A stretch of DNA of 64,000 bases from Escherichia coli (GTDB taxonomy: Bacteria; Pseudomonadota; Gammaproteobacteria; Enterobacterales; Enterobacteriaceae), in the NCBI GenBank assembly GCA_005400705.1, contig GCA_005400705.1_4079.1. One strand, 5' to 3'. Both the position numbers and the translations under genes were made by a program. Every line of letters begins with the position of its first letter. Positions within the stretch are counted from its first letter, which is position 1. Shown in pieces: positions 42,283-43,050 of the stretch. The notes beneath the pieces are model-generated. The model searched no databases. It saw nothing but the letters and a program-made list of their open reading frames with translations, and was not told where the DNA came from.

Positions 42283-42477
42283 ATGACTGACAAAACATTT
42301 TATGATCGTATTATTGAAGACAAGGGAGTTTTTGATAAGGTAGTTTATGACCTAGAACTTATGATCAAAGACGCACCGAACCCCCGTGTGCGAACCCAAG
42401 CAGAATTTGCAAAAACTTATCTTGTTCAAGTTCAAGCAATCTGTGAAGCAATTAAAAAACACAATGATAGTGCTTGA
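42283..42477 (+). CDS. hypothetical small protein
   Basis: 64-aa ORF; stop lies within -35 of next promoter. Confidence 0.4.
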   Translation: MTDKTFYDRIIEDKGVFDKVVYDLELMIKDAPNPRVRTQAEFAKTYLVQVQAICEAIKKHNDSA

Positions 42478-42502
42478 CAGAACTAATGTTCTATCCTATA
42501 AT
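42474..42502 (+). promoter_or_regulatory. consensus sigma70-type promoter (TTGACA-17-TATAAT)
   Basis: TTGACA 42474-42479, 17-nt spacer, TATAAT 42497-42502; drives IF3/ClpS-like genes. Confidence 0.55.
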
Positions 42503-42546
42503 TACTATCGAACAAAACATTAAAATCATATTGGAGCTTTTATTAC

Positions 42547-43050
42547 ATGAAATCTATTATTGCCAATAACGAAATCACCGCAAAAACTGTACGTCTTGTT
42601 ACGGAAGGTGCAAGTGAGGTCATGGCAATCTCTAAAGCACTTACTTTAGCAGAAAATCAAGGATTGGATTTGGTGGTTATTGGTGCAGGTGATGAACCTG
42701 CTGTCAAAATTACAGATCTTAACAAATACAAATATGAGTTGAAGCAAGCTGAAAAGGCTTCTCTTAAAAAACAACGACAAAATGCCGTGAGTATTAAAGA
42801 GATTCAATTCAACTTTGGTACACAAGAGCATGATTTGCAGATTAAAGCAAAAAGTGCTGAAAAATTCCTTGATGAAGGGAAACATGTTCATATTGTAATG
42901 AAAACTTCAGGACGTGGAACTAATGCATCAGTAATTCAAGCAAATATTAATGCAATGGAATCATTCGTTAATCGTTTGGGTAACGTTTCATATGTTCAAA
43001 AAGTCGAGTTCCAAGGTAAAAAGGTAACCTGTACTGTCAAAGTAAAATAA
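42547..43050 (+). CDS. infC: translation initiation factor IF-3 homolog
   Basis: Colinear with bacterial IF3 N and C domains: [20 protein letters not shown]..., [38 protein letters not shown]. Confidence 0.8.

Follow-up and report, generated by a model that had tools for sequence, protein, structure and literature searches.

A virus-encoded initiation factor IF3 behind a conserved sigma70-like promoter sequence in an Asteriusvirus jumbo coliphage

Genes for translation initiation factor IF3 have been annotated and discussed in the family of giant coliphages for more than ten years. The 2017 description of phage CBB (PMC5259590) recorded IF-3 in CBB, GAP32, 121Q, PBECO4 and RaK2; Al-Shayeb et al. 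2020 (PMC7162821) counted IF1 and IF3 among the huge-phage genes that redirect host translation; Iyer et al. 2021 (PMC7824862) noted that jumbo phages of group 2.2 carry IF3, ClpS and KTSC; and the Sharanji paper of 2025 (PMC11895373) considered that IF3 function in phages 'cannot be definitively stated'. Core factors of translation that are carried by phages are of interest for the question of how large phages come to command the ribosomes of the host. The gene analysed here lies in a stretch of 64,000 nucleotides (nt) of contig GCA_005400705.1_4079.1, from the Escherichia coli assembly GCA_005400705.1, the whole of which is called the window in this text, and it encodes an IF3 homologue of 167 amino acids (aa). 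Its identification is the rediscovery of an annotated gene: the exact 167-aa sequence has been deposited as 'translation initiation factor IF-3' (AIT13944.1 from 121Q, BBM61636.1 from SP27, and others) and, since this identical protein has also been discussed in print, the finding is not new. The conservation of its promoter, the change in its RFRGR loop and the wider linkage of IF3 with bS21 and Clp genes were not found in PMC5259590, PMC7824862 or PMC11895373.

By its sequence, the window belongs to an Asteriusvirus jumbo coliphage, a group with genomes of about 350 kb; over this region, its identity with Escherichia phages IA-38, SP27, PBECO4, slurp01 and Sharanji is 99.7-99.9%, and with 121Q it is 97.7%. 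An original prediction, made from the letters alone, had placed here an open reading frame (ORF) of 167 aa starting with ATG and colinear with both IF3 domains, and the frame was read exactly where it had been claimed. Its parts are the following.

42547..43050, + strand: coding sequence of the IF3 homologue, 167 aa plus stop, ATG start; orthologue of PBECO4 gp458, 121Q gene 47 and Sharanji gp294 (infC).
42565..42759, + strand: IF3 N-terminal domain, residues 7-71 (Pfam IF3_N), with R16 and K54 as the counterparts of E. coli R25 and R66.
42718..42783, + strand: lysine-rich helical linker, residues 58-79, from the AlphaFold2 helix and the alignments; Y63 corresponds to E. coli Y75.
42787..43041, + strand: IF3 C-terminal, 30S-binding domain, residues 81-165 (Pfam IF3_C), with D96, K100, G122 and R123.
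42901..42915, + strand: KTSGR loop, K119-R123 (AAA ACT TCA GGA CGT), aligned with 129-RFRGR-133 of E. coli, the loop that contacts the start codon; S121 stands at the place of R131.

Both domains are recognised by their Pfam profiles above the gathering cutoffs, IF3_N (PF05198) over residues 7-71 (5.8e-16, 58.9 bits against a cutoff of 26.9) and IF3_C (PF00707) over residues 81-165 (8e-14, 51.8 bits against 34.8), and the full-length protein matches TIGR00168, the NCBIfam infC equivalog, with 110.4 bits against a cutoff of 60. PHROGs assigns it to phrog_9787, 'translation initiation factor', and a sequence search of the PDB returned only IF3 chains, headed by those of E. coli (8jsg_A, 3e-17) and Thermus thermophilus (5lmn_X, 4e-17). 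An AlphaFold2 model built with 27 homologues (mean predicted local distance difference test score 84.7) has the canonical IF3 topology, beta-beta-alpha-beta-beta, a long helix at residues 58-79, and then beta-alpha-beta-alpha-beta-beta. When this model was compared with the PDB by Foldseek, the best matches were full-length IF3 bound to 30S subunits, with template modelling (TM) scores of 0.71-0.79 and E values of 1e-12 to 1e-14 (5lmn_X 0.71, 9ss1_F3 0.74, 9a5a_B 0.79), together with C-domain matches to 1tig, 2ife and 2m71. Thus, the colinearity with both domains holds, the profile matches are significant over curated cutoffs, and the N-domain, helical linker and C-domain of the model fit ribosome-bound IF3. 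Neither of the outcomes that would have refuted the prediction, a lack of significant IF3 profile matches or an incompatible predicted fold, was observed. That the product has the IF3 fold and is a genuine orthologue of IF3 is practically certain.

The same sequence is found unchanged (100% identity) in 121Q, SP27, slurp01 and Sharanji; identity is 99.4% in PBECO4 and 52-72% in other genera. A tblastn search gave matches in 95 phage records, in which all the Rak2-like genera are included (RaK2, K64-1, Muenster, GAP32, CBB, Munch, fHe-Yen9-03/04, Serratia BF, Erwinia phages and XbC2); GAP32_313 and CBB_318 are among the annotated IF-3 genes. The ratio of nonsynonymous to synonymous substitution rates (dN/dS) is 0.07 against Ecwhy_1 (dS 0.81) and 0.16 against Turkey5, values that point to strong purifying selection on the gene and by which a pseudogene or a drifting, non-functional passenger was excluded.

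An alignment of 29 clade members, IF3 of E. coli and 130 further IF3 representatives was used to follow residue conservation. The clade keeps the equivalents of R25, K/R66, K72, Y75, K82, K86, K87, K94, D106, K110, G132 and R133; in particular, R16, K54, K100, D96, G122 and R123 (E. coli R25, R66, K110, D106, G132 and R133) are kept in 27-29 of the 29 members. Lysine, the residue of the window at K54, is also the majority residue at the E. coli R66 position in other IF3s, and the linker tyrosine (Y63, E. coli Y75) is Y or F in every clade member. In E. coli, R25 and R66 contact the tRNA elbow (PMC9723500), Y75N is the infC362 fidelity mutant, and K110L abolishes 30S binding (PMC7145577). The isoelectric point, 9.45, is close to the 9.54 of E. 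coli IF3, although the composition differs (21 K and 4 R against 21 K and 15 R). Taking into account that the GC content of the phage genome is 34%, lysine in place of arginine is to be expected in this protein.

The start of the gene is preceded by the following signals.

42474..42479, + strand: -35 hexamer TTGACA, from direct reading and pattern search.
42497..42502, + strand: -10 hexamer TATAAT, 17 nt past the -35, from direct reading and pattern search.
42533..42536, + strand: Shine-Dalgarno (SD) core GGAG, 10 nt before the IF3 ATG, from direct reading.

The promoter announced in the prediction, TTGACA-17-TATAAT upstream of the IF3 frame, was therefore recovered at 42474-42502, with all 12 consensus positions and a 17-nt spacer (the sigma70 criterion being 17 +/- 1 nt). 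Its description as the strongest-looking promoter of the window did not survive, since it ties with two other perfect consensus sites. Perfect TTGACA-N17-TATAAT is present three times in the window, each time on the + strand (at 28272, 42474 and 60654), where shuffled sequences give an expectation of 0.09, so that the IF3 site is far beyond chance. The transcription start would fall near 42509-42510, leaving a predicted 5' untranslated region (UTR) of about 37 nt.

To compare the promoter among relatives, the 120 nt 5' of the IF3 start were aligned between the window and eight phages that belong to different genera, and the comparison was extended by a best-match scan of seven further IMG/VR contigs. 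Every compared sequence has a homologous sigma70-like site, in which 9-12 of the 12 consensus positions are kept and the hexamers stand 16-17 nt apart. The -35 at this position is TTGAC(A/T/G) or TTTACT, and the -10 of the relatives is TATAAT, TATATT, TACAAT, TATCAT or TACCAT; as examples, TTGACA-17-TATAAT is found in Ecwhy_1, Turkey5 and Munch, TTGACA-16-TATAAT in CBB, TTGACT-16-TACAAT in GAP32, TTTACT-17-TATAAT in Muenster, and TTGACG-17-TACCAT in XbC2. The hexamers persist while the spacer and the flanks drift, which is the pattern expected of a functional promoter. Conservation across relatives from several genera thus supports a real promoter in front of IF3. A conserved TGCTT before the -35 was considered as a T4 MotA box. 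In T4 middle promoters, the MotA box needs about 12 nt to the -10; the TGCTT lies about 19 nt from it, and a plain -35 is preferred. Within the portion of the CBB supplement text that was accessible, CBB_318 appears in the gene table only, under no promoter name.

Of the two other perfect sites, the one at 28272-28300 (+) appears, by approximate coordinate mapping, to be intracoding, in the 3' part of the homologue of PBECO4 gp480, and not intergenic. At 60654-60700 (+), the spacer and the -10 lie inside a hairpin with a 16-bp stem, GAGTGCGTTTTTAATA...TATTGAAAACGCACTC, which has a folding energy of -22.1 kcal/mol (z = -6.4) and is followed by TTTTT. This terminator-like hairpin and the consensus promoter share the same DNA, just upstream of an ORF that starts at 60711.

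With respect to translation, the GGAG core is kept in all nine aligned sequences, at 10 nt from the AUG in the window and 10-13 nt in the relatives; the modal SD-AUG spacing in 61 neighbouring genes is 7 nt, and the KTSC gene discussed below also has 10 nt. The leader folds weakly (42509-42590, -4.1 kcal/mol, z = 0.79), with neither a regulatory structure nor sequestration of the SD, and Rfam recognised no RNA family anywhere in the window, neither a leader of the L20 type nor another regulatory RNA. The AUU start of infC underlies the autorepression of IF3. It was reportedly the work of Butler et al. in 1987 and Sacerdot et al. in 1996 that established this start as the basis of the control. 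In E. coli K-12, infC has an ATT start 7 nt past an SD of the GGAGG type, and the order thrS-infC-rpmI-rplT was confirmed. The difference stressed in the prediction, AUG in the phage gene against AUU in the host gene, is borne out by both sequences. No in-frame upstream AUU or other start resembling that of host infC was found, and the N-terminus aligns from residue 1 with IF3 of T. thermophilus. An ATG start with no upstream in-frame alternative means that the phage product should not repress itself through the AUU route.

On balance, we favour the proposal that the gene product acts as a productive IF3 on host ribosomes, supplementing or replacing the cellular factor, a reading held as probable rather than secure. 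In this account, unmodified host RNA polymerase with sigma70 would transcribe the gene from the conserved promoter, probably from early in infection, and translation would begin at an ordinary SD-AUG on an unstructured leader and, owing to this start, without the AUU feedback that restrains host infC. The protein would then most likely bind the platform and P-site region of the host 30S subunit as cellular IF3 does, and add to the IF3 pool of the infected cell or take it over. Its activities would be those of keeping 30S subunits free (anti-association), accelerating the formation of initiation complexes and recycling ribosomes, to the presumable benefit of a phage that expresses some 550 genes. 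The release of assembly factors, as cellular IF3 does for RbfA, may also take place.

Several points weigh against this proposal. The phage protein is 29% identical to host IF3, so that productive binding to the E. coli 30S subunit is not guaranteed, and the changes from RFRGR to KTSGR and from E134 to glycine mean that it may not behave as a plain IF3. The SD-AUG spacing exceeds the local mode and does not suggest maximal translation; the need for extra IF3 in a cell where this factor is abundant is unexplained; early timing is suggested by the promoter consensus alone; and a literature search turned up no experiment on any phage IF3.

The altered loop gives rise to the first competing explanation, a more specific form of the retuned initiation suggested in the prediction, according to which the factor would be relaxed or re-specified, with weaker proofreading of the codon-anticodon pair and of the mRNA near +4 and free of feedback, shifting initiation in favour of those phage mRNAs whose starts are non-AUG, weak or leaderless. 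In an alignment anchored on the near-invariant G-R, no basic residue stands at position 131 in the window (S121), and this position is S, T, A, V, I, N, Q or E, a set reported as uncharged, in 28 of the 29 clade members. Arg131 is thus replaced throughout the clade, as against 109 of 130 other IF3 representatives that have R or K there, although the remaining 21 (16%) also lack it. The equivalent of E134 is mostly glycine in the clade and glutamate in 93 of the 130 others. The related Vibrio jumbo phage 2.275.O has RLHGR, with histidine at 131, while other phage IF3s adjoining bS21 retain R or K there (e.g., QMRGR, RFKGR), which counts against this explanation. The low GC content accounts for R-to-K changes at other sites, whereas the lost charge at 131 is left unexplained by it. 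In E. coli, non-AUG codons, leaderless mRNAs and 3GC-mutant initiator tRNAs are all used more for initiation when IF3 carries R131P; IF3 of Mycoplasma, with P, F or Y at this position, shows relaxed discrimination, and so does the factor when RFRGR is swapped for the mitochondrial KKGK motif (PMC11775629). The effect of Ser131 would nevertheless be read by analogy with these other substitutions.

The genes of the phage give no sign of a special need for such a factor. Among 61 annotated neighbouring PBECO4 genes, 55 start with ATG, 5 with GTG and 1 with TTG, most of them with an SD, by which unusual start-codon usage or leaderless genes as a special need were rejected. The GTG start that had been proposed at 19271 is sound, with AGGAG 9 nt upstream and in agreement with the RefSeq call for PBECO4 gp491. 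The recurring initiation context fared less well: looser versions do precede other genes, but the exact 15-mer AAGGAAATACAAATG occurs only twice, at 28517-28531 and 54457-54471 (+). The looser forms, AAGGAATACAAAATG and AAGGGAATACAAACGATG, stand before other genes, DNA polymerase among them, and the whole looks like a shared A-rich SD context rather than a repeated element.

A phage initiator tRNA was also considered and rejected. The 64-kb window has no tRNA genes. Outside it, Sharanji has a tRNA-Met(CAU) (locus L095, 5374-5463, - strand) of 90 nt with a long variable arm, the anticodon stem GCCGA/UCGGU without the three G-C pairs, and the T-loop UUAGAAU. Judged from these features, this tRNA, the only one of Sharanji with a CAU anticodon, is neither an initiator nor a normal elongator methionine tRNA. 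It adjoins a tRNA-Ser with the unusual anticodon ACU, and Sharanji is said to encode a tRNA adenosine deaminase (PMC11895373). Taking together the clade-wide loss of Arg131, the ordinary starts and the tRNA findings, relaxed proofreading is an unlikely explanation, although the best placed of those that compete with a productive IF3.

It could also be proposed that the protein takes part in host shut-off, occupying the IF3 site of the 30S subunit as a poor or selective factor, and thereby depressing host translation or excluding host IF3. The retention of 30S-binding residues beside an altered decoding loop, and a consensus promoter without AUU feedback, would suit such a role. However, the SD-AUG mRNAs of the phage need the same ribosomes, and the strong purifying selection on all the domains and on the linker, with the equivalents of Y75 and R25 that are needed for productive initiation, fits an active factor better than a blocker. 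This explanation is improbable.

Returning to the productive IF3, its gene is set in a wider block of nucleotide metabolism and replication (RNR, DHFR, RNase H, Dda helicase, topoisomerase II and DNA polymerase), and locally in the order Dda helicase, an ORF of about 190 aa, a 64-aa ORF, IF3, a ClpS-like gene, a KTSC gene and a structural protein, which is identical in all the relatives examined and in 14 IMG/VR contigs. The immediate neighbours are listed here.

42283..42477, + strand: 64-aa ORF (phrog_15132), conserved, with its TGA stop inside the -35 of the IF3 promoter.
43064..43609, + strand: ClpS-like gene, 181 aa, 13 nt past the IF3 stop; Pfam ClpS 24.7 bits against a cutoff of 23, phrog_15940.
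43681..44226, + strand: KTSC-domain gene, 181 aa, after a 71-nt gap from the ClpS-like gene; Pfam KTSC 6.3e-14.

Homologues of the 64-aa ORF (44-56% identity) lie just 5' of IF3 in all 14 Rak2-like viral loci. In the ClpS-like protein, the match to ClpS is weak and covers only residues 74-144, an N-terminal extension of about 70 aa being unmatched; databases label the gene 'ATP-dependent protease', though it is at most an adaptor. No terminator-like site was found on the + strand between 40 and 46 kb, and no strong promoter-like site between IF3 and the ClpS-like gene (the best scoring 9/12). As no terminator or strong promoter intervenes, co-transcription of IF3, the ClpS-like gene and the KTSC gene as one unit is probable.

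In more distant viruses, IF3 keeps similar company. Vibrio phage 2.275.O (locus L011, 2483-4286) has IF3, bS21, a ClpS-like gene and KTSC; Agrobacterium phage Atu_ph07 (L012, 1173-2995) has ClpX and then IF3; and about 22 IMG/VR contigs have IF3 followed by bS21 and/or ClpS, two of which, checked with Pfam, carry ClpX, IF3, bS21, an unknown ORF, Hsp20 and ClpS (L034, 1713-4976; L044, 1761-4645). IF3 is thus recurrently linked to Clp, chaperone and bS21 genes across distant phage lineages. Clp and Hsp20 genes near phage bS21 have been described (Chen 2022, PMC9723584), and a mention of IF3 was not found in that paper.

None of the 78 viral loci has an L35 or L20 gene (rpmI, rplT) adjoining IF3, so that the phage IF3 genes are not pieces of the bacterial operon. 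A recent capture from the host was rejected, given the 29% identity to E. coli IF3, a roughly equal distance (33-45%) from more than 100 IF3 representatives and the absence of adjacent L35/L20. When labels as viral or bacterial were sought for 150 unlabelled IF3 representatives from their similarity to the viral loci, only a few could be assigned, so that no donor lineage can be named. Vertical inheritance within the Rak2-like jumbo phages (Asteriusvirus, Alcyoneusvirus, Mimasvirus and relatives) is the best explanation for this gene.

A function tied to Clp, in which the ClpS-like adaptor would serve to degrade and replace ribosome-associated factors of the host, or IF3 would mainly release hibernation or assembly factors from the 30S subunit, might be read from the proximity of IF3 to genes of the Clp system in several distant phage lineages and from the displacement of RbfA from 30S subunits by cellular IF3 (PMC7145577), but it is very improbable indeed, because gene linkage is no mechanism, the ClpS match is weak (24.7 bits), no evidence was found for IF3 or bS21 as Clp substrates, and the whole IF3 architecture is retained.

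It might further be speculated that an ancient viral IF3, shared by the Rak2-like phages and a lineage like that of Vibrio phage 2.275.O, lost Arg131 and, with a host-type promoter and no AUU feedback, became a low-stringency factor re-programming start-site choice on the 30S subunit, within a widely conserved viral cassette that serves initiation and proteostasis, unites IF3 with bS21, ClpS, ClpX, Hsp20 and KTSC in varied combinations, and might replace platform factors of the host. This broader picture is doubtful.

Beyond the identification itself, the remaining value of this locus lies in its leads, namely the loss of Arg131, the conserved promoter and operon, and the linkage of IF3 with bS21, Clp and Hsp20 across lineages. 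The phage IF3 is a good experimental entry point, as the host is E. coli K-12 (Sharanji infects MG1655) and a toolkit for E. coli IF3 exists, with infC mutants, start-codon reporters and cryo-electron microscopy of 30S initiation complexes. The clade-wide KTSGR change makes retuned proofreading testable by one point mutation in each direction.

Compared with the described IF-3 genes of Rak2-like phages, this is the same gene, in the same position and with the same neighbours, with no difference at the sequence level; the published notes on those genes end at annotation. The bacterial IF3s (E. coli InfC, P0A707; T. thermophilus, PDB 5LMN-5LMV) are alike in their two domains, lysine-rich linker, fold and basic isoelectric point. 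With respect to E. coli IF3, the phage protein, at 29% identity, lacks an N-terminal tail of about 11 residues, has a linker longer by 2 residues, and carries KTSGR for RFRGR and glycine for E134; with respect to E. coli infC, its gene starts with AUG and not AUU, with no rpmI-rplT downstream and no thrS upstream. The IF3s with altered loops (E. coli R131P, Mycoplasma, and mammalian IF3mt with KKGK) are accompanied by relaxed discrimination where non-AUG codons, leaderless mRNAs or initiator tRNAs lacking the 3GC pairs are concerned (PMC11775629). The phage clade differs from them in having small polar or aliphatic residues (S, T, A, V) in place of P, F or Y and in having no terminal extensions, and the phage genes here look like ordinary SD-AUG genes. 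Finally, phage bS21 (Mizuno 2019, PMC6375957; PMC7162821; PMC9723584) is a ribosomal protein and not a factor, and in the clade of the window it does not stand between IF3 and ClpS as it does elsewhere; it is likewise, however, a component supplied by the virus that works at the 30S platform in the course of initiation.

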